Assembly (NCBI RefSeq): GCF_008000775.2
Contig: NZ_CP042905.2
Coordinates: forward strand, 60,001 to 92,000
Reading direction: 5' to 3'
From: Promethearchaeum syntrophicum
GTDB taxonomy: Archaea > Asgardarchaeota > Lokiarchaeia > Sigyniarchaeales > Promethearchaeaceae
Length of the DNA: 32,000 bases
Shown one piece after another: positions 191-32,000 of the stretch (its first letter is position 1; every line of letters starts with the position of its first letter). The notes beneath the pieces were generated by a model. The model had not been told where the DNA came from. It worked only from the letters and a program-made list of their open reading frames with translations, and did no database searches. The translations under genes and the position numbers were made by a program.

Positions 191-397
191 TTATCCACCA
201 GCTATCCTAGGCAATATTAAAATTTCATCATCTTTTTCCACAAAATCAGAAGGTTCTACTTTCTTACCATTGATTAAGACGACAAAATATCTTGATTCAA
301 GATTTAATTTAGTTAGTACATCATATACTTTCTGTGGATTTTTGACTCGATAAGTGGTCATGGATGACACTTCTTCGATTTTTTCGATATTCTGCAA
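191..397 (-). CDS. Small ubiquitin-like beta-grasp protein of the ThiS/MoaD/SAMP type, ending in Gly-Gly
   Basis: 68-aa ORF ending ...ILILPRIAGG followed by stop. The size and the C-terminal GG are the ThiS/MoaD/SAMP hallmark. The listed start is TTG; an ATG at 361 (MTTYRVKN...) is an alternative. Confidence 0.65.
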   Translation of the reverse strand: MQNIEKIEEVSSMTTYRVKNPQKVYDVLTKLNLESRYFVVLINGKKVEPSDFVEKDDEILILPRIAGG

Positions 398-508
398 AAT
401 TATTCACCCTCCCTGTTTTTTGTTTTCGATAAAGTAATCTTAAAACAATGATAAAAAGGTTACTAATTTGTAAAATAAGGTGTTAATAAAAAAACAAAAT
501 TCTAATAA

Positions 509-1201
509 TTATTTCTTCTTTTTTCTTTTTTGTTTTACTTTCTTCCCTTTTTCTTTTTCATTTGGAACGTTATTGTTGATAAATCTTTGTGTAATATCTT
601 TTTCCAAACAATTTTGAGAATACTCACTTAAAATTTGATTCAATAAACCAATTCCATCAAAATCATAGGTTTTAGCTAAAGAAAGATCATTTTCAAATAG
701 CTTATCAATAATTGTCAAAGCTTCAACGGGAATATTTAAGTTAAAATCCATAGAAAAATAATCTTCCGTTTGTATTGAATCCAAAATCTTTGCTAATTGT
801 GGAGAAAATCCAGCAAAATTTGGGATAATCCCTTTCTTCATCCCTTTTAAAAGATCAGAATTGCTGGTATTTATTTCATCTAAGTAAATACTGAATAATT
901 CCGTAATTTCTGATAAAATTGCATGACTAGTTGTCGGATCGAATCCTGTCGATATTAATAATAAATCTACTTGCCCGATATGATCAAAATCGACCGTTTC
1001 AAAATCCAATAATGAATTTCCTAAACTTATTGATTTTAATTCATTCATTTTAGAACTTTGAAGAAAGGAGTTAGAAAAGGATTTTAGCGCGGAGAAAAAT
1101 GAGAGTAATAAACTTTCATCTATATTTTTATTGCTATAGTCTTTGGAATAAATAGGTATTCCATACTTATCTGCAATAAGTACTGCATCTATATCTCCCA
1201 T
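509..1201 (-). CDS. Hypothetical protein with an N-terminal longin/roadblock-like domain and a polybasic C-terminal tail
   Basis: The N-terminus reads IDAVLIADKYGIPIYSKDY...LLLSFFSALKSFSNSF...LKSISLGNSLLDFETVD...VDLLLIS. This follows the strand-strand-helix-strand-strand pattern of longin/roadblock (MglB, AP-sigma-like) folds. The tail is EKEKGKKVKQKRKKKK. Confidence 0.4.
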   Translation of the reverse strand: MGDIDAVLIADKYGIPIYSKDYSNKNIDESLLLSFFSALKSFSNSFLQSSKMNELKSISLGNSLLDFETVDFDHIGQVDLLLISTGFDPTTSHAILSEITELFSIYLDEINTSNSDLLKGMKKGIIPNFAGFSPQLAKILDSIQTEDYFSMDFNLNIPVEALTIIDKLFENDLSLAKTYDFDGIGLLNQILSEYSQNCLEKDITQRFINNNVPNEKEKGKKVKQKRKKKK

Positions 1202-1266
1202 GATATCCCTTAATTCCTTCCCGTAAAAATAAATGAAAGTATAGAAAAATAAAGGTTAACATTATC

Positions 1267-2517
1267 TTAAAATATTGCTTTAACGTCTTTCAAAAATTCA
1301 GCAAGATGGGATTTTTTGATATGAGGCATTAATACAACTCTTAAGAGATTCCACTGTTTGAATACGCCTAATGCCCACCCTTTCTGTCGAAGTAGCGAAT
1401 TAAATCTATCTAAAGACATATTTGCTTTGGAAGACATCTGAATTCCTAAAACATTCATGGTTGGTTCAGTTGCGATTTTCAATTCAGGAATTTCCTCAAT
1501 TTGATCTTTAAGGTAATAAGTATTTTCTAAACTGTGTCTCACATTTTCTACGAACCCTTGTTTTCCCATAAACTGCATTAATCCCCAAAATGATATAGCT
1601 GAGGCTCCTGGGCGCGTTCCAAGAATATTATAAGATGGAAATGCTCCACCTGCGAGATAAGGTATTTCAAACTTGAAGGAATTTACATTCGAATCTTTAA
1701 CGAGTAATGATCCACTAGGATTAACCGACATTCCCATTTTGTGAGGATCCACTGTATAACTACAAATTTCTGGAACTTTTAGATTGTATGGAGGAAAATC
1801 ATAACCTAATTCTTCCATAAACGGAACAACCAATCCACCAAAGGCCGCATCTACGTGGAAATACTTATTATATTTCCCTGCTAACTTTCCAATTTTTTCA
1901 ATGGGATCAATCAATCCAAGTGCACTCGTTCCTAGTATTCCTACTAATGCTATTGTGTTATCATCAATTAACGATTCATAATGGTCGAAATCCAAATGAT
2001 AATTAGACAATAATTTAGCGCGCTTTACTTTTAATCCCATTAAAATTGCGGCTTTATCAAAACTATAATGCGCGGAATCGGGAATAACAATCGAGGGTTC
2101 TTTAATGTCTAAATTATTTTGTTTTGCCAAAAGCATTGCTATAATATTTGCTTCAGTACCACCAGAAGTAATATTTCCATCGACATATGGATCTCCCAAT
2201 AAATTTCCTAGCATCTCAATTACTTCTTTTTCTATTGCTGCGGTGCCAGGATTCAATCCGCGATCTCCAAGATTTCTATCTATAAATTTAGAATAAATAT
2301 AACGAGCAAAATCATGTGGGGGCGTTGTCATTGCTCCCAAAACTTTTCCGGATGAATAATCTAAATCAATTTTTAATCGGTCTTCTAATTCAGTTAAAAT
2401 TAATGATCTTGATTTTCCTTTGTGAAGTTTTGGAAAATTATTCTCTGAATATCCTATGAAACCTTCAATATTTTGTAGGATGTCGGTTAACGGTTTGCCT
2501 TTGTCACTTAGTTCCAT
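1267..2517 (-). CDS. mfnA: PLP-dependent group II amino-acid decarboxylase (MfnA-type tyrosine/aspartate decarboxylase), probably the beta-alanine source for CoA
   Basis: 416 aa. Carries SGGTEANI, a DAAFGG-type aspartate region and the DPHKMG PLP-lysine motif. Divergently adjacent to panB. Confidence 0.8.
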   Translation of the reverse strand: MELSDKGKPLTDILQNIEGFIGYSENNFPKLHKGKSRSLILTELEDRLKIDLDYSSGKVLGAMTTPPHDFARYIYSKFIDRNLGDRGLNPGTAAIEKEVIEMLGNLLGDPYVDGNITSGGTEANIIAMLLAKQNNLDIKEPSIVIPDSAHYSFDKAAILMGLKVKRAKLLSNYHLDFDHYESLIDDNTIALVGILGTSALGLIDPIEKIGKLAGKYNKYFHVDAAFGGLVVPFMEELGYDFPPYNLKVPEICSYTVDPHKMGMSVNPSGSLLVKDSNVNSFKFEIPYLAGGAFPSYNILGTRPGASAISFWGLMQFMGKQGFVENVRHSLENTYYLKDQIEEIPELKIATEPTMNVLGIQMSSKANMSLDRFNSLLRQKGWALGVFKQWNLLRVVLMPHIKKSHLAEFLKDVKAIF

Positions 2518-2665
2518 TGAATTTAATGCTCCAAATTTAGAAATTATCCGATTTCTAATTTTTTCTCGTGGAAAAATTGATTAAAACTCTTAGTTTGAAT
2601 TAGTATATACTGATCGAAACTACATGTTAAAATAAATTCTCCTTCAAAAGCAAATTGATAGGATA

Positions 2666-3610
2666 ATGTCTGAGAAGAAACAAAAAAAAATAACAGCTCA
2701 ATCGTTCATAACTATGAAAAAAAATGGTGAAAAAATAACAGTTTTGACATCTTACGATTATATCATGGCAAAAGCCCTAGATTCCGCAGGGATAGATGCT
2801 TTGTTAGTTGGAGATTCTATGGGAATGGTGATATATGGTCAAAATTCGACTCTTCCAGTCACTGTAGAAGATATTCTCAGACATACTCAAGCGGTTGCGC
2901 GCGGTACAAATCGTTCTATGGTTATCGCTGATATGCCGTTTATGAGTTTTTCAACACCAGACATTGCTTTGAAAAATGCGGGTAGATTTATCAAGGAAGG
3001 GAATGCCGACGCTGTTAAACTTGAAGGGGGAAGGGAAAGAGTAAAAAGCATTAAAATGATGATAGAATGTGGAATTCCTGTTATGGGACATTTAGGTTTA
3101 ACTCCCCAATATATTCATCAGCTTGGCGGATACAAACTTCAGGGCAAAAATGCTCATGCGGCAGAAAGATTGATTGAAGATGCATTACTTTTAGAAGAAG
3201 CGGGAGTATTTGCAATTGTTTTAGAAATGGTTCCATGGCAAGTTGCGAAAGAAATCAGTTCTCGGATTCAGATCCCCACAATTGGGATTGGAGCTGGGGC
3301 ATATTGTGATGGCCAAGTTCTCGTAGCTCAAGATATGATGGGATTTTCCGATAGAAAACCCTTTAAATTCGTAAAAAAATACGCTGATGTTTGGAATATA
3401 ATGGTAGATGCAGGAAAAAATTATATTAATGATATTAAAAATGGAGAGTTTCCTGCGCAGACCAATAGTTTTGAAATCCCAGAAGATGAATACCAGATGC
3501 TAAAGGATAGCATTGAACATAATCCCAAGCTCAAAAATACCGTTCATGAAGAAGGAAACATCCATAAAAAGGATAAAGAAACAGATATCGGATCGATTTA
3601 TTCCAATTAA
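2666..3610 (+). CDS. panB: 3-methyl-2-oxobutanoate hydroxymethyltransferase (ketopantoate hydroxymethyltransferase)
   Basis: Motifs LVGDSMGMV, ADMPFMSF, AVKLEGG, GHLGLTPQ and PTIGIGAG..CDGQVLV match PanB throughout. There is a C-terminal extension of about 45 aa. Confidence 0.92.
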   Translation: MSEKKQKKITAQSFITMKKNGEKITVLTSYDYIMAKALDSAGIDALLVGDSMGMVIYGQNSTLPVTVEDILRHTQAVARGTNRSMVIADMPFMSFSTPDIALKNAGRFIKEGNADAVKLEGGRERVKSIKMMIECGIPVMGHLGLTPQYIHQLGGYKLQGKNAHAAERLIEDALLLEEAGVFAIVLEMVPWQVAKEISSRIQIPTIGIGAGAYCDGQVLVAQDMMGFSDRKPFKFVKKYADVWNIMVDAGKNYINDIKNGEFPAQTNSFEIPEDEYQMLKDSIEHNPKLKNTVHEEGNIHKKDKETDIGSIYSN

Positions 3611-3675
3611 GATTGCAAAAACCCCAATTTTTTAAATCTCTTTTTATGATAGTCTTTGGAGATGATTTTTAATAT

Positions 3676-4566
3676 TTGAGTATTGAAAATATATATGTTG
3701 GCACTTGTGGATGGAGTTATGATGATTGGAAACAAGTTTTTTATCCCAATGCCCTAAAACAGCAAAATTTCTTAGAATTTTACTCAAATATATTCCGAAC
3801 TGTTGAAATTGATTCTAGTTTTTACCGAATTCCAAGTAAAAATACTGTTTTAAATTGGGCTAAAAATACTCCTATTGATTTTAGATTCAGTGCTAAACTT
3901 CCTCAAGAAATAACACATAAAGCAAAATTGGATTTGAATAAATCAGAAAAATTTTTGAAGTTATACTGGGATAATATTCTTCCTTTAGAAACAAGTGGAA
4001 AAATTATTGCACACCTAATACAATTACCTCCAAGTTTTACCTATGAAAAACATTGGGATAATTTGGAAAATTTCTTAAACCTATGGAACGAATTTCGAGA
4101 TATAAAAGAAAACAAACTTAGATGGTGTCCTGTGGTTGAATTTAGGCATAAATCATGGATGAAGGATAAAACTTTCAACCTATTAAAAGACACGAACACG
4201 GCTTATTGTGCAGTAATTGAACCAGAAATCCCTCCTCGTATGGATATTACTAGAAAAGATTTATTTTACTTAAGATTTCATGGATATGGAAAAAAACCTT
4301 GGTGGAATTATTCCTTTTCCGATAAAGAATTAGATCAATGGGCGGAGACTTTGAATGAGGTTTTTTCAAAAACCCCAAAAGCAGCGAAAGTAGTATATTT
4401 TAATAATCATTTTAGCGGTTATGCAGTTAAAAATGCCCAAGATTTAATGCCAAAAATTGGAGTAAAACCTGTTCAAAATTTAGAACTTATGCAAAAAAAG
4501 GTGACTCAAAAAGGAAATATTAATAAAGCCCGCCGATCCCTTGATAATTGGATAAATAAGAAGTAA
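3676..4566 (+). CDS. DUF72 (YecE/UPF0759) family protein
   Basis: The N-terminus VGTCGWSYDDWKQVFYP...FLEFYSNIFRTVEIDSSFYRIPS and the later YLRFHG motif are characteristic of DUF72. TTG start. The stop abuts the panE start. Confidence 0.8.
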   Translation: MSIENIYVGTCGWSYDDWKQVFYPNALKQQNFLEFYSNIFRTVEIDSSFYRIPSKNTVLNWAKNTPIDFRFSAKLPQEITHKAKLDLNKSEKFLKLYWDNILPLETSGKIIAHLIQLPPSFTYEKHWDNLENFLNLWNEFRDIKENKLRWCPVVEFRHKSWMKDKTFNLLKDTNTAYCAVIEPEIPPRMDITRKDLFYLRFHGYGKKPWWNYSFSDKELDQWAETLNEVFSKTPKAAKVVYFNNHFSGYAVKNAQDLMPKIGVKPVQNLELMQKKVTQKGNINKARRSLDNWINKK

Positions 4567-5541
4567 TTGATAAAAATGCGGATATTATTGATAGGCCCGG
4601 GCAGTATTGGGGTACTTTTTGGAGGAAAATTGGCCCTCGCAGGTAATAGAATTTTAATATATGCTCGCCCTCACTTTTCAACGATTTTGAAAGAACATCC
4701 ATTAAAATTAACAGATATCATCAATAAAGAACATGTGGTCCCGAATTTTGAAAAGGCACCTCCAATTCCAGAATTAATCAAATTAAGCCCACAAGAATTT
4801 CCAAAAATATGCTTAATTACCACTAAATCTTATGATTTAGAGAGCGTTTGCAGAGAATATCAGCCTGTTCTTAACAAAATTCCAATTATTGGATTAATTC
4901 AAAATGGAATTGGAAATGAAGAAATTATTGAGAATAACTATCCGAATTCAATAATTTTCCGTATAATCACATCCCATGGAGCAATGAGAGAAAATATTAG
5001 TCATATTATTCACACTGGTATAGGAAATACTTCAATTTGCCAAATTAAACCTCCATATGAAAACATCTCTGCCGAGAATAAACAGATTATAAAAGAATTT
5101 ACTGATAATCTTCAATATGCAGGTTTTGAATTAAAATTAAATAAAAATCCTTTGGAAGCTATTTGGAGAAAAGCCTTAACGAATATTGGTATAAATGCTA
5201 TAGGTGCTTTGACTCAACTAACTAATGGAGAACTATTAAAATCCGAATCTTTATTAAATTTAATTCGAAAAACGATAAATGAAGCAATATTAATTGCAAA
5301 TAAATTACAAATTCCCCTTGATCCCTCGTTTGATTATGTTCAAAACACACTTGAAGTTCTAAAAAATACAGCAACCAATAAGAACAGCATGTTACAAGAT
5401 GTGCTAAGAAAGAAAAAAACCGAAATTGAATTTTTAAATGAAAAGATAGTGAATTATGGAAAAAAAATGCATATTCCGACTCCAATAAATAAAACTCTAT
5501 CACAACTAATTCATGGATTAGAAAATTCTTATATTTTATGA
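4567..5541 (+). CDS. panE: 2-dehydropantoate 2-reductase (ketopantoate reductase)
   Basis: Rossmann N-terminus ILLIGPGSIGVLFGGKLALAG and C-terminal NSMLQDVLRKKKTEIEFLNEKIV..G....IPTPIN, typical of ApbA/PanE. The likely true start is the ATG at 4576 (MRILLIGPG). Confidence 0.82.
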   Translation: MIKMRILLIGPGSIGVLFGGKLALAGNRILIYARPHFSTILKEHPLKLTDIINKEHVVPNFEKAPPIPELIKLSPQEFPKICLITTKSYDLESVCREYQPVLNKIPIIGLIQNGIGNEEIIENNYPNSIIFRIITSHGAMRENISHIIHTGIGNTSICQIKPPYENISAENKQIIKEFTDNLQYAGFELKLNKNPLEAIWRKALTNIGINAIGALTQLTNGELLKSESLLNLIRKTINEAILIANKLQIPLDPSFDYVQNTLEVLKNTATNKNSMLQDVLRKKKTEIEFLNEKIVNYGKKMHIPTPINKTLSQLIHGLENSYIL

Positions 5542-6107
5542 TAATCTTTCTCATAAACAACCCAACTAGCTCGACGCCGCCGCACTTGAAAATCATGGTC
5601 GAGTTGGGCAACCAGAACGTGTTCAGGATCTCCATGAATATAACTTACATCAACAACAGGTTCGGATGCAGTTAATACTAGATCTTTGGGAACTGGCATC
5701 ATAATAGGAGTGTTCCCACAAATTTGACATTCAATTAGAATATATTTTGTCTCGGTTGTTTCTTTTTTTGTGAGTTCTTCTAATTGATTGCTATTTAATT
5801 TTATTTTAATTGCTTTTTTCATAGGGGGAGGGGGAATTGAAAGGTCAATCTCACTCATATCAAGTTTTGGTTTTTTTAATTTTGTAGATCCTGATATTGT
5901 CTTTAGATTTTTTGGGGATTTTGGAACTTTTGGAGGTGGGGGAGTAGCCTTTTGTGGATTTTTTAATCCGTTTTCAAAAGTTTCAAGAAGATATTTCCAA
6001 GTTTCTCTCCAATGAACAGGGCTATCGCTTTTTTGATTCAAATCATCCTTGATATCTTTCATTTTAACCCAAATTTCTAAAGGTATTGATATAGTTTTAT
6101 TTGCCAT
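5529..6107 (-). CDS. Hypothetical protein: Pro/Lys-rich linker and a C-terminal Cys-containing domain
   Basis: 192-aa ORF. It has a low-complexity PPPPKVPKSPK middle and a C-terminus reading ILIECQICGN...YIHGDPEHVLVAQLDHDFQVRRRR. No family recognised. Its 3' end overlaps panE convergently by 13 nt. Confidence 0.5.
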   Translation of the reverse strand: MANKTISIPLEIWVKMKDIKDDLNQKSDSPVHWRETWKYLLETFENGLKNPQKATPPPPKVPKSPKNLKTISGSTKLKKPKLDMSEIDLSIPPPPMKKAIKIKLNSNQLEELTKKETTETKYILIECQICGNTPIMMPVPKDLVLTASEPVVDVSYIHGDPEHVLVAQLDHDFQVRRRRASWVVYEKDYHKI

Positions 6108-22966: not shown

Positions 22967-22987
22967 ACTCGTTCCTGATTAAGGTCC

Positions 22988-26085
<3,098 letters not shown>

Positions 26086-26178
26086 AATAGTCCGAGTGTT
26101 TGGGCTGGAAAAGGAACATGTGGGTCCTGGCTTTGAATCGGAATCATTGCAGAGCAGTCGAACGAGAGATCGTGCGAT

Positions 26179-26234
26179 CTGAGAGTATGCGGTGGTTAGG
26201 ATTTAGGAGTTGGGGTGAGATGTTAGAATATTTA
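26179..26234 (+). other. 3' strand of the putative pre-23S processing helix
   Basis: CTGAGAGTATGCGGTGGTTAGGATTT pairs with the 5' leader (CCGATAAGCTCTCAG, AACCTTAACC). TTAGAATATTTA pairs perfectly with 22903-22914. Confidence 0.45.
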
Positions 26235-26372
26235 GAGACAGACATCACATGAACGGAAACAGATTTGAAGAAATGGTAGGTTTGGAATAGGTAGGGGTAG
26301 TAAAAATGATATAAAAACGGAAAAATGTTGGTATAATTTGCAGGGCAGGGCTTTGTCGTGGGCTTTTAACTT
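26208..26372 (+). repeat. Direct repeat, copy A (about 165 nt), immediately 3' of the 23S processing helix and ending in an oligo-T run
   Basis: Aligns by eye with 30764-30917. The first 25 nt (AGTTGGGGTGAGATGTTAGAATATT) and the last 21 nt (TTTGTCGTGGGCTTTTAACTT) are identical. The middle is more diverged and has small indels. Confidence 0.85.
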
Positions 26373-26578
26373 TTTTCCCAATTTTCAAAAAATATTAATT
26401 CTTAATATCGGTATTTCCTATCTTAATTGATTCGATAATCCAGAGTTTATTATCCAACATGAAAAAAACTAAGGAGTAGAAAAAAAATCATCGACAATTT
26501 TTTCGTTGTTTTTCATTCGGTTACTAATACTAAAAAATAAAATTGTTTCCAAAAAAAGATATTTCTCGGTCAAAAAAA

Positions 26579-26593
26579 ATAAATTTGCAACTC
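26579..26593 (-). repeat. Inverted copy of the GAGTTGCAAATTTAT motif that heads the tandem array
   Basis: ATAAATTTGCAACTC is the exact reverse complement of 27611-27625. The two copies bracket the membrane-protein gene. Confidence 0.7.
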
Positions 26594-26783
26594 ACCATTG
26601 TTCATTTTGCTTGACTTGATTGGGAAAAATATAACGGTTCTCTTAATACTAAAAGATATTTCAACCACCAATAAACGATAACACAAACACTTAAACGATA
26701 ATACAACCACACCCCTATTTCTTAAGTGGTTGGCTTGTTGGTGAGAATCTAATTTCTTCAACATATATAATTGAAAAAAAAAA

Positions 26784-27290
26784 TTAGTAATATTGGGAAA
26801 TATGCCATTCTCTCTTTGCACCAAATCGATATAAGAAATATCCGATAAAGGGATAGATTGCAACAAAAAAAAGGGGGAAAATCGCATATACTAACCATAC
26901 TGGAAGTAAATATGGATTTATGGGTGCCCAAGGGGCAATAATTAGTAAATATCCTACAAACAAACAAATAGGGACAGTTATAACAAATCCAACAACACCC
27001 ACTAACATAATTTTATTCATTAAGATAATTGTGTTTATGCTTTTGATGTTTTGAAAACCGTGCATTAGGATTATTCCTAAGGGAGGAACAATGGTCATGA
27101 AAATTGCGAACCTCAAGCTCATTATGTTGAAGTAATATAGAACCCATATAAAAAGTGTATTAGTAATTATCGCCCCGAGATTTATCCAAACCCAATTTTT
27201 TTTGCAGGTTTCCCAAAAATTCTTAATAATTTCTTTAAAATTCTTTTCTTCTGAATCATCTTCTTCCGAAATTTTTTCCTTAATATTCAT
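26784..27290 (-). CDS. Small integral membrane protein (about 4 TM helices) with an acidic N-terminus
   Basis: 168 aa. After MNIKEKISEEDDSEEK there are four long hydrophobic stretches (for example WINLGAIITNTLFIWVLYYF and LVGVVGFVITVPICLFVGYLLII). No family recognised. Confidence 0.55.
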   Translation of the reverse strand: MNIKEKISEEDDSEEKNFKEIIKNFWETCKKNWVWINLGAIITNTLFIWVLYYFNIMSLRFAIFMTIVPPLGIILMHGFQNIKSINTIILMNKIMLVGVVGFVITVPICLFVGYLLIIAPWAPINPYLLPVWLVYAIFPLFFVAIYPFIGYFLYRFGAKREWHISQYY

Positions 27291-27610
27291 TCAATCATCT
27301 CTTTGCGAATATATTATTGAAAATTAACCCATCACATGCCAAGCAAGTAAAGTACTAATATCTAGATTGAATAAATCCATGTTAATAAAATAGATACAAT
27401 TCTGATTATATCTTTCTCTATCTCTTGAAATTCAATCCGAAACAATACTTTTTTGGGGTTTATTAATTTTTTTTGTGTTTATTTGAGAATTTTCTAGGTT
27501 TCAAATGACATCCCACTAACAGGGACTTCCATTAAAAATCGCAGATATAAAATGCGAGAAAAAAAATAAAAAATTTTTTTTACCCCCCCATATCGCCCAT
27601 ACAAAAAAGA

Positions 27611-28022
27611 GAGTTGCAAATTTATCTTTGTTTTAGCTCTTTTTTCGGACCTTTTTTAAGCATAGATCCACATATATCTTTGTTTCTGGACCTTTTTCAG
27701 ACAAAGTTGCAGAATTATCTTTGCTACTGGACCTTTTACCGGACCTTTTTCAGACAAAGTTGCAGAATTATCTTTGCTACTGGACCTTTTACCGGACCTT
27801 TTTCAGACAAAGTTGCAGAATTATCTTTGCTACTGGACCTTTTACCGGACCTTTTTCAGACAAAGTCGCAAATTTATCTTTGTTTGGGAGCATTTTGAAG
27901 CAAAGTTGCAGAATTATCTTAGCTAAAACATCATTAATGTCAAAAGTATCGATTGTTCCATCTTCGTTTAAATGACAAAAATCGCATTTTAGAGAAAAAC
28001 AAGAGTTGCAAAATTATCTTTT
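27611..28022 (+). repeat. Tandem repeat array: three perfect 53-bp units flanked by degenerate units, all built on GTTGCA(G/A)A(A/T)TTATCTT
   Basis: Units at 27706-27758, 27759-27811 and 27812-27864 are identical (GTTGCAGAATTATCTTTGCTACTGGACCTTTTACCGGACCTTTTTCAGACAAA). Motif copies also start at 27613, 27865, 27905 and 28005, with a degenerate unit at about 27666. Confidence 0.9.
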
Positions 28023-28165
28023 GGTATCTGTTACCATATGAAGATATGTGGTTTTTAAATGAAGTAGAAAAGGAGGTTTACAAGGAAAAAATAATATGTC
28101 CGATGAAGAAATGAGGATAGATTAGATCTTATAAAAAAAATTTTACTTTTTTTTTTACGACATTT

Positions 28166-30286: not shown

Positions 30287-30326
30287 TTCACGAATTGGTA
30301 TGTATTTTTGGACCTTTTACTTTATC

Positions 30327-31139: not shown

Positions 31140-32000
31140 ATGAAAAAACGCACTAAAAAATCTTCTGTAAAAACAACTAGACATCAAAGAAATCCCGTAA
31201 AATACCCAGGTATAGTAATAAAAAATGGACATTTGACGATTCTCCCCGAGAATATCAAAAATCTGAAATTTCTCGAAATTATGAATTTAAGTAATAAACG
31301 GTTAACATCACTCCCAGAAAATATCGGAGATCTAAGATCTCTAAAAAATTTAGATTTATCAGATAATCAGTTAACAAAACTCCCGGAAAGCATCGGAAAT
31401 CTAACATCTCTAAAAATTTTAGATTTATCAGATAACCAGATAACAAAACTCCCGGAAAGCATCGGAAATCTAACATCTCTAAAAATTTTAGATTTATCAG
31501 ATAACCAGATAACAAAACTCCCAGAAAGCATTGGAAATTTGAAATCACTTGAAAAGTTGAATTTACGAGGTTTTCAGATACCGACACTTCCGTATGAGAT
31601 TGAAAATCTGAAAATATCCGAAATGATAAATTTAAGACACAAATGGTTAATATCGCTCCCAGAAAGCATCGGAAATCTAACATCTCTAAAAAATTTAGAT
31701 TTATCTTATAATCAATTAACCAAACTCCCAGAAAGCATCGGAAACCTGAAATCACTTGAAAAGTTGAATTTATATGCTAATCGAATAAAAACACTACCGG
31801 AAAGTATTGGAAATCTATCTTCTCTAAGAGATTTAAATTTATCACTCTTATTTTTTAATTCACTACCGAAAAGCTTAGGAAATTTGAAATTACTCGAAAA
31901 TTTGGAATTATCATCTAATGTATTACCTTTTCTTCCAGAGGAGATCGGAAATCTAACATCTTTACAAAGTTTAGATTTAACATCTAATCAGTTAACAACC
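31140..32000 (+). CDS. Leucine-rich-repeat protein, 5' part (continues past the window end); absent from the ORF track
   Basis: Manual translation from the ATG at 31140 gives MKKRTKKSSVKTTRHQRNPVKYPGIVIKNGHLTILPENIKNLKFLEIMNLSNKRLTSLPENIGDLRSLKNLDLSDNQLTKLPESIGNLTSLKILDLSDNQITKLPESIGNL... There are at least 11 consecutive 23-aa LRR units, open to position 32000. Confidence 0.85.
   Translation, partial: MKKRTKKSSVKTTRHQRNPVKYPGIVIKNGHLTILPENIKNLKFLEIMNLSNKRLTSLPENIGDLRSLKNLDLSDNQLTKLPESIGNLTSLKILDLSDNQITKLPESIGNLTSLKILDLSDNQITKLPESIGNLKSLEKLNLRGFQIPTLPYEIENLKISEMINLRHKWLISLPESIGNLTSLKNLDLSYNQLTKLPESIGNLKSLEKLNLYANRIKTLPESIGNLSSLRDLNLSLLFFNSLPKSLGNLKLLENLELSSNVLPFLPEEIGNLTSLQSLDLTSNQLTT
31381..31518 (+). 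repeat. Perfect tandem duplication of one 69-nt (23-codon) LRR unit
   Basis: 31381-31449 and 31450-31518 are identical (TCCCGGAAAGCATCGGAAATCTAACATCTCTAAAAATTTTAGATTTATCAGATAACCAGATAACAAAAC). Confidence 0.9.

Follow-up and report, generated by a model that had tools for sequence, protein, structure and literature searches.

A Repeat Array of Promethearchaeum syntrophicum as the Probable Right End of a Non-Autonomous, Tn7-Like Transposon

Structure of the Repeat Array

The window, as we call the whole analyzed stretch of DNA, comprises 32,000 nucleotides (contig NZ_CP042905.2, positions 60,001 to 92,000) of the closed, 4.32-Mb genome of Promethearchaeum syntrophicum, which has a G+C content of 31%. 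Among its genes are those of aRF1, an archaeal phosphopantothenate/pantothenate synthetase (Pfam PPS_PS), GTPases of the Gtr1/RagA type, and many LRR proteins. The repeat array studied here lies between the 23S rRNA gene and one of the LRR genes. It forms the right end of a 1,505-bp element, copy A, which extends from 26525 to 28029 and whose parts are compiled in Table 1.

Table 1. Parts of copy A and neighboring features, in window positions.
Feature	Position	Strand	Remarks
23S rRNA gene	22982-26107		
5-bp target duplication GTTAC, left	26520-26524	.	just outside the limit of homology among copies A, B and C
Left tip with terminal site L1 (TAATACTAAAAAATAAAATTG...)	26525-26550	+	imperfect inverted repeat of the right tip
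Site L2, inverted array core	26574-26593	-	one mismatch at 26576-26591; present in copies B and C
Cargo segment, copy A only	26594-27519	-	copies B and C have about 100 bp here instead
Gene of a 168-aa membrane protein	26784-27290	-	in the cargo segment; without Pfam match
Conserved internal segment, 84 bp	27520-27603	+	C-run and TATA-like stretch; common to the copies
Sites R6 (27613-27630) and R5 (27665-27682, degenerate)	27613-27682	+	arranged and spaced (52 bp) as in copies B and D
Site R4 in 53-bp unit, three identical units	27706-27864	+	TRF score 369
Sites R3 (27865-27882) and R2 (27905-27922)	27865-27922	+	40-bp spacing as in all other copies
Unique 82-bp spacer between R2 and R1	27923-28004	+	with R1, the best-conserved part in other genomes
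Terminal site R1 (28005-28022) and 7-bp right tip	28005-28029	+	tip GGTATCT; consensus GGTATTA
5-bp target duplication GTTAC, right	28030-28034	.	same 5-mer, directly after the right tip
Convergent LRR gene, 706 aa	28166-30286	-	Pfam LRR_14, LRR_4, LRR_8; 3' end faces the right tip; probable target landmark

The initial annotation had read the array as a set of helically phased 53-bp tandem units in non-coding DNA, built on one core motif and arranged for cooperative protein binding, and had proposed iterons, a partition site or an origin-like element. Inspection of the sequence confirmed three identical units (27706-27758, 27759-27811 and 27812-27864), which are bordered on either side by degenerate ones; TRF reports a period of 53 bp with 3.7 copies and 97% matches. 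The core GTTGCA(R)A(W)TTATCTT occurs without mismatch at 27613, 27706, 27759, 27812, 27905 and 28005, and the number of matches expected in shuffled sequence is 0.00. The site listed at 27865 is placed correctly but carries one mismatch (GTCGCA), and the inverted core of site L2 had been absent from the list. The doubled GGACCTTTT sub-repeat was likewise found (period-12 rows of the repeat search), as was the recurrence of GGACCTTTTAC at 30310-30320. This exact match is located 24 bp upstream of the start of the LRR gene and 2.3 kb from the array, and it is probably due to chance, because outside the element family there are only two copies genome-wide as opposed to about three that we estimate to be expected by chance.

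That the array is non-coding also holds: The ORFs that run through it on the plus strand (94 and 84 aa) are without Pfam match, and a minus-strand reading with a CxxC...CxxC pattern was rejected because a stop precedes it and its cysteines are not conserved in the other copies. There was no support for a structured ncRNA: The folding z-scores were -0.27 and -0.48, and no Rfam family matched below E = 0.16. A CRISPR array, which had been named as an alternative, was rejected: The stretches between the cores measure 18-35 bp and are conserved from locus to locus, and three of the units are wholly identical.

Along the whole right end of copy A, the sites are spaced by 52, 41, 53, 53, 53, 40 and 100 bp, which corresponds to about 5, 3.9, 5, 5, 5, 3.8 and 9.5 helical turns. 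Consequently, the sites do not all lie on one face of the helix, and the helical phasing that had been claimed applies to the 53-bp units alone but not to the end as a whole. In copies B and D, which are described below, the right end has a fixed layout of six 18-bp sites at distances of 52, 41, 53, 40 and 100 bp, and in copies B, C and D the 53-bp unit stands single at the position of R4; copy A has eight sites instead of six via triplication of this unit. Because the other copies keep the 52/41/53/40/100 layout with one 53-bp unit, the perfect array, as judged from the sequences of the copies, is a recent triplication of one unit within this layout and not the basic design. The triplication may have come about by slippage or unequal exchange, and the 53-bp phasing is a local accident.

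A Family of Elements with Common Borders

A genome-wide search for the core, as the annotation had advised, yielded about 30 matches compared with one for a reversed control, and the matches are clustered at four loci, namely at 87.6 kb (this window), 1,928 kb, 2,712 kb and 2,923 kb. Likeness between the loci runs from the array to the left, through the conserved internal segment, to a left end that holds the inverted core: In alignments that include 27520-27603, copy A is 84% identical to copy B and 82% to copy C, and copies E and F align in part. Altogether, the genome contains six copies or part-copies, which fall into two subfamilies. The left end has two 18-bp sites that are inverted relative to those of the right end, so that all sites point to the tips. 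Moreover, the homology of nine copies from four genomes ends at identical bases on both sides. The left boundary reads 5'-TAATAC(T/C)AAAA and the right one TTTTGGTATTA-3'. Together they make up an inverted repeat that is imperfect and about 26 bp long; the consensus tips of the nine copies are TAATAC(C/T)...GGTATTA, and a terminal site lies 7 bp from each tip. By our own count, the left tip of copy A matches the reverse complement of the consensus right tip at about 21 of 26 bases, and over 39 bp it shares 97% identity with the left tips at genome positions 1928196 and 2713227.

Directly outside these borders, 5-bp duplications flank four of the six genome copies: GTTAC in copy A, AAAAT in copy B (577 bp, genome 1928196-1928772), AGAGA in copy E (genome 1130995-1130354) and TTTTT in copy F (genome 2712068-2711499). 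Copies C and D are nested or rearranged and have no clean 5-bp duplication. Copy C is complete with the array part duplicated in tandem, and copy D joins a left half of subfamily 2 to a right half of subfamily 1 inside an older array. At this base composition, we calculate that one 5-mer would match at fixed boundaries with a probability of about 0.002, and five such matches were observed, one of them in a relative (contig G002:C17). Copies E and F, which are 92-95% identical to each other, represent subfamily 2; its tips are related, and it has a core of its own, GTGGTTGTGTTATCTTTT, at both the internal sites and the tip region, as would be expected if a family-specific protein reads the sites.

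Copy A stands out by its cargo segment, which has 926 bp compared with about 100 bp in the other copies. The presence of a membrane protein gene in it looks like gene capture by a transposon. The multi-pass protein has a 61%-identical paralogue encoded at genome 107,667-108,167, 20 kb away and outside any element.

The dispersal of the copies bears directly on the origin, iteron and partition identities suggested initially, that is, on the idea of chromosomal iterons that serve replication, partition or cooperative DNA binding of some other kind. The directly oriented 18-bp repeats with their short CAAAG/CTTTG arms and the 53-bp units of nearly five helical turns are in line with such an array, and plasmid iterons and archaeal origin recognition boxes are likewise direct repeats of a protein-binding type in AT-rich, non-coding DNA. 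Such systems differ, however, from the present one, which has no initiator gene nearby and no DNA-unwinding-element layout flanked by inverted boxes: Orc1/Cdc6 is not adjacent to any copy, the nearest copy being about 79 kb off, the phasing is not uniform with its 53-bp regularity confined to copy A, and the six copies are dispersed, truncated and nested, with target duplications on their flanks. The cumulative GC skew of this genome has no clear pattern of an origin or terminus and is uninformative at the copies. We consider a chromosomal iteron array highly improbable, and an origin or partition site was rejected in favor of the end of a mobile element; a cooperative protein-binding array in non-coding DNA is still the best general description. 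The genome has three Orc1/Cdc6 genes, at 1165, 165744 and 2633112, and the assembly starts at one of them. For annotation, this means one false origin or partition candidate less, and the reading as transposon ends would account for four iteron-like repeat fields in the genome.

Insertion Behind LRR Genes

In four of the six copies, a convergent LRR-family gene has its 3' end 39-140 bp away from the right tip, an arrangement that a random oriented site would show with a probability of 6.8e-4 per site. The right tip of copy A lies 140 bp from the end of an LRR C-terminal domain, and the C-terminal 85 aa or so of this neighboring LRR protein are conserved at 24 places in the genome. In two relatives, the corresponding distances are 12 bp and 15 bp. 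Copy B is not behind an LRR-family gene. This distribution points to targeted insertion behind LRR gene ends. A precise att-type mechanism is not implied, since the distance from tip to gene end varies, as does that from the tip to the conserved RLGWE codons (205-271 nt). The alternative in the initial annotation of a selfish satellite with no positional association is thus half right: The DNA is selfish, but it is associated with the 3' ends of LRR genes.

The location of four copies behind paralogous LRR genes could also have arisen without transposition, if LRR genes were duplicated or gene-converted along with the DNA at their 3' ends. The degrees of divergence, however, are hard to reconcile with common descent of elements and genes, because the elements are far more alike (80-95% identity) than the genes, whose proteins are 25-45% identical and whose DNA cannot be aligned. 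Moreover, the spacers between genes and elements are non-homologous, copy B does not lie behind an LRR gene of this kind, and the sharp borders are accompanied by 5-bp duplications in five copies including the one in the relative. We regard an origin by LRR gene duplication as very improbable.

Relatives and the Probable Link to Tn7

A scan of the species genomes gave matches limited to four MAG contigs; the MAGs of the same genus are labelled Promethearchaeum sp. Two metagenome scans yielded nothing apart from one chance match within a bacterial gene, and IMG/VR yielded no match; a short 16-mer query gave at least 118 matches there, which are presumably due to chance. The relatives mostly have the right-end module of 65-115 bp alone, and the 82-bp spacer together with R1 shows 90% identity in the same-genus MAG G003 and 78-88% in G011, which belongs to another genus.

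These solo modules raise the question of domestication, in which the copies would have been retained because the right-end module serves the host, for example as an outward promoter antisense to the LRR genes or as a terminator of the latter. A TTTAAAT box about 25 bp before R1 is a putative outward promoter, and the R1 module of about 65 bp, better conserved than any other part and found by itself in other genomes (78-90% identity), is mostly directed at the ends of LRR genes. Some solo modules, however, adjoin unrelated genes, and do so in both relative directions; the tips and sites are decaying in several copies, and neither the RNA structure z-scores given above nor the Rfam search speaks for a structured RNA. 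Domestication appears decidedly unlikely to us.

The copy in the same-genus MAG contig G002:C17 is of a fuller kind. It has 786 bp, the same tips and the 5-bp duplication TAATC, and its interior holds an ORF for a TnsA-like endonuclease that is directed inward from the right end (PF08722, corresponding to the N-terminal domain of TnsA; E 5.6e-9, 36.9 bits relative to a cut-off of 26.5). The tnsA gene of Tn7 has the same position and direction. The G002:C17 copy has the ends alone in common with the copies of this genome, which is the usual relation of a fuller element to its deletion derivatives. The closest full-length relative of its ORF is the N-terminus of an 897-aa fused TnsA-TnsB in contig G008:C74 (56% identity), where the fusion is followed by a TniB/TnsC ATPase and then by a C2H2 zinc-finger protein. 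Contig G011:C347 has part of a fused TnsAB 460 bp inside a right-end module; this fragment reads towards the tip and not inward.

From these sequences, we assign a probability of about 0.68 to the reading that the array makes up the right end of a DNA transposon which is non-autonomous and was most likely derived by deletion from a member of the Tn7 family. The element works like a member of this family and probably descends from one; we do not file it as a proven member, because its tips, the ends of the relatives, and the lack of both an intact partner and a TnsB-type gene do not fit. The intact Tn7-like elements that could be read in relatives have canonical tips of the type ...CCCACA and ...GTTCACA, and their sites, which are contiguous and 21-22 bp long, are unrelated to those of the family. 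Those of G003:C338, G011:C360 and G008:C74 were rejected as partners since their tips are unrelated to those of the family, and an apparent tip match in G008:C74 lies inside the Dam methylase gene and is due to chance. An intact element with both the family tips and a transposase gene was found neither in this genome nor in relatives nor in the public collections searched. This genome has no match to rve, the Mu-transposase C-terminal domain, TnsAB or the IS630-type DDE_3, and tblastn with 150 TnsB-like proteins revealed no TnsB remnant in it. A resident IS was rejected as the mobilizing partner: Two IS copies with CATGATTTTTCAAG tips are unrelated. Because the genome has no matching transposase gene, we infer that the copies in it are now immobile.

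The same observations could be accommodated by a non-autonomous transposon of a non-Tn7 family, mobilized by another DDE or a different transposase, with the TnsA and TnsB remnants of relatives as chance neighbors in DNA rich in transposons. In favor of this, the tips differ from TGT/ACA and are unrelated to the Tn7-like ends known from relatives, the genomes searched contain no intact partner, and a 5-bp target duplication occurs in other transposon families too. What argues against a non-Tn7 origin is that the TnsA-like ORF fills a copy with family tips and a 5-bp duplication, in the position and direction known from Tn7, and that right-end-first insertion behind the 3' ends of genes is typical of Tn7 targeting. 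Overall, we regard a non-Tn7 family as unlikely and favor, by inference, descent from Tn7.

The source of the closest TnsA-TnsB is itself of interest. In G008:C74, positions 317-5832 (locus L109) constitute an intact-looking Tn7-like element with the 897-aa TnsAB, the TniB-like ATPase and a 316-aa protein with many C2H2 fingers. It sits directly behind a shortened gene for a Dam-type methylase, a position reminiscent of the methylase attachment site in the reconstituted Heimdallarchaeal element (Thesier et al. 2025, bioRxiv 10.1101/2025.07.27.667033).

Proposed Mechanism and Likeness to Known Systems

By analogy with Tn7, Mu and Tn5053, the 18-bp cores are candidate binding sites for a TnsB-type transposase, which would assemble on both ends and insert the element with a 5-bp duplication, while a target selector would place the right end just past the 3' end of an LRR gene. 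With the Tn7 family, the elements share the 5-bp target duplication, asymmetric ends with several direct sites of about 20 bp and a terminal site a few bases from the tip, a tnsA-type gene by the right end that reads inward (in the copy of G002:C17), a specific orientation of insertion in which the right end is the one nearest to the 3' end of a conserved gene, and the stacking of several elements at one site (locus C/F). They differ in their tips, which are TAA...TTA in contrast to TGT...ACA (rarely TGA) in Tn7, and in the number and spacing of the right-end sites: Six sites at distances of 40-100 bp take the place of three or four close ones, and with an extent of about 300 bp they are more numerous and more widely spread than at known Tn7 or Mu ends. 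Furthermore, the target is a set of about 24 paralogous LRR genes at variable distance and not one housekeeping gene, and there is neither a transposase gene in this genome nor a known intact partner.

Several unevenly spaced sites per end and a 5-bp duplication are also characteristic of the ends of Mu and Tn5053/Tn402, which contain the sites of MuA and TniA; in Mu, for example, L1 is far from L2 and L3. The ends of those elements, however, finish in CA, the elements encode MuA/MuB or TniA/TniB, which are absent here, and they do not target gene ends. Archaeal MITEs and non-autonomous IS derivatives resemble the present family in being short, nearly gene-less and multi-copy, with inverted tips, duplications, nesting and decay, but their inverted repeats are typically simple, with no long array of internal sites on one side, and copy A carries a cargo gene.

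A further-reaching and tentative reading, which we consider possible but doubtful, is that of an Asgard-specific Tn7 branch with TAA/TTA tips, long and wide arrays, and homing to the 3' ends of LRR-family genes. The target selector of such a branch might be a C2H2 zinc-finger protein like that of the closest full-length relative, and its fossil ends might now provide outward promoters or recombination points that shape the fast-evolving LRR family.

The mobile DNA of Asgard archaea is poorly charted. Here, the one long-cultured species, with its closed genome, has datable fossils of Tn7-like elements. Their tips are unusual, and they prefer the ends of genes from the LRR family, which is both expanded and variable in these archaea. 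Provided that this targeting is true, it would represent a Tn7-type selector aimed at a multi-gene family and could help to explain how the variable gene blocks of these genomes are assembled. Tn7-like elements in Asgard archaea were reported as late as 2025, and archaeal and Asgard examples with fused tnsAB, 5-bp duplications and gene-end targeting are known (bioRxiv 10.1101/2025.07.27.667033); LRR targets, miniature (MITE-like) derivatives and this species are not mentioned in that report.

Flanks of the Insertion Sites

A search of relatives gave no clean empty site: For copy A, MAG G001 has different DNA between the trailer of the 23S rRNA gene and the LRR gene, and for copy B, the flanks are missing from the same-genus genomes. 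Copy B lies within inverted 70-nt arms that consist of CGGAAATAAA-type repeats (genome 1928114-1928195 and 1928996-1929065; locus L040, 9625-9694 and 10497-10566). No other place in the genome has these outer arms, and they do not belong to the element family. A second, solo right-end module is situated between copy B and the right arm.

Near the insertion points of copies C, D and F, as well as downstream of two LRR genes, we observed the motif GTCTCA followed by a T run (or AAATTTTTT), with flank positions at about 2712330, 2713250, 2712075, 2711465 and 2923495 of the genome. Its role may be that of a common terminator or of a favored target.

On the other side of the window's array, a MAG of the same genus has about 290 bp of conserved DNA following the 23S rRNA gene: Window positions 22982-26400 were compared with 841-1414 and 3026-3156 of contig G001:C41 (locus L074), which has a second partial copy of the 23S-trailing DNA 1.6 kb further on. 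The DNA past window position 26400 is not shared with this contig; accordingly, the variable block begins directly after the rRNA trailer. At 31303-31844, the window contains another tandem repeat, with a period of 69 bp (7.9 copies, 72% matches), which is the 23-residue LRR coding repeat of the next gene.
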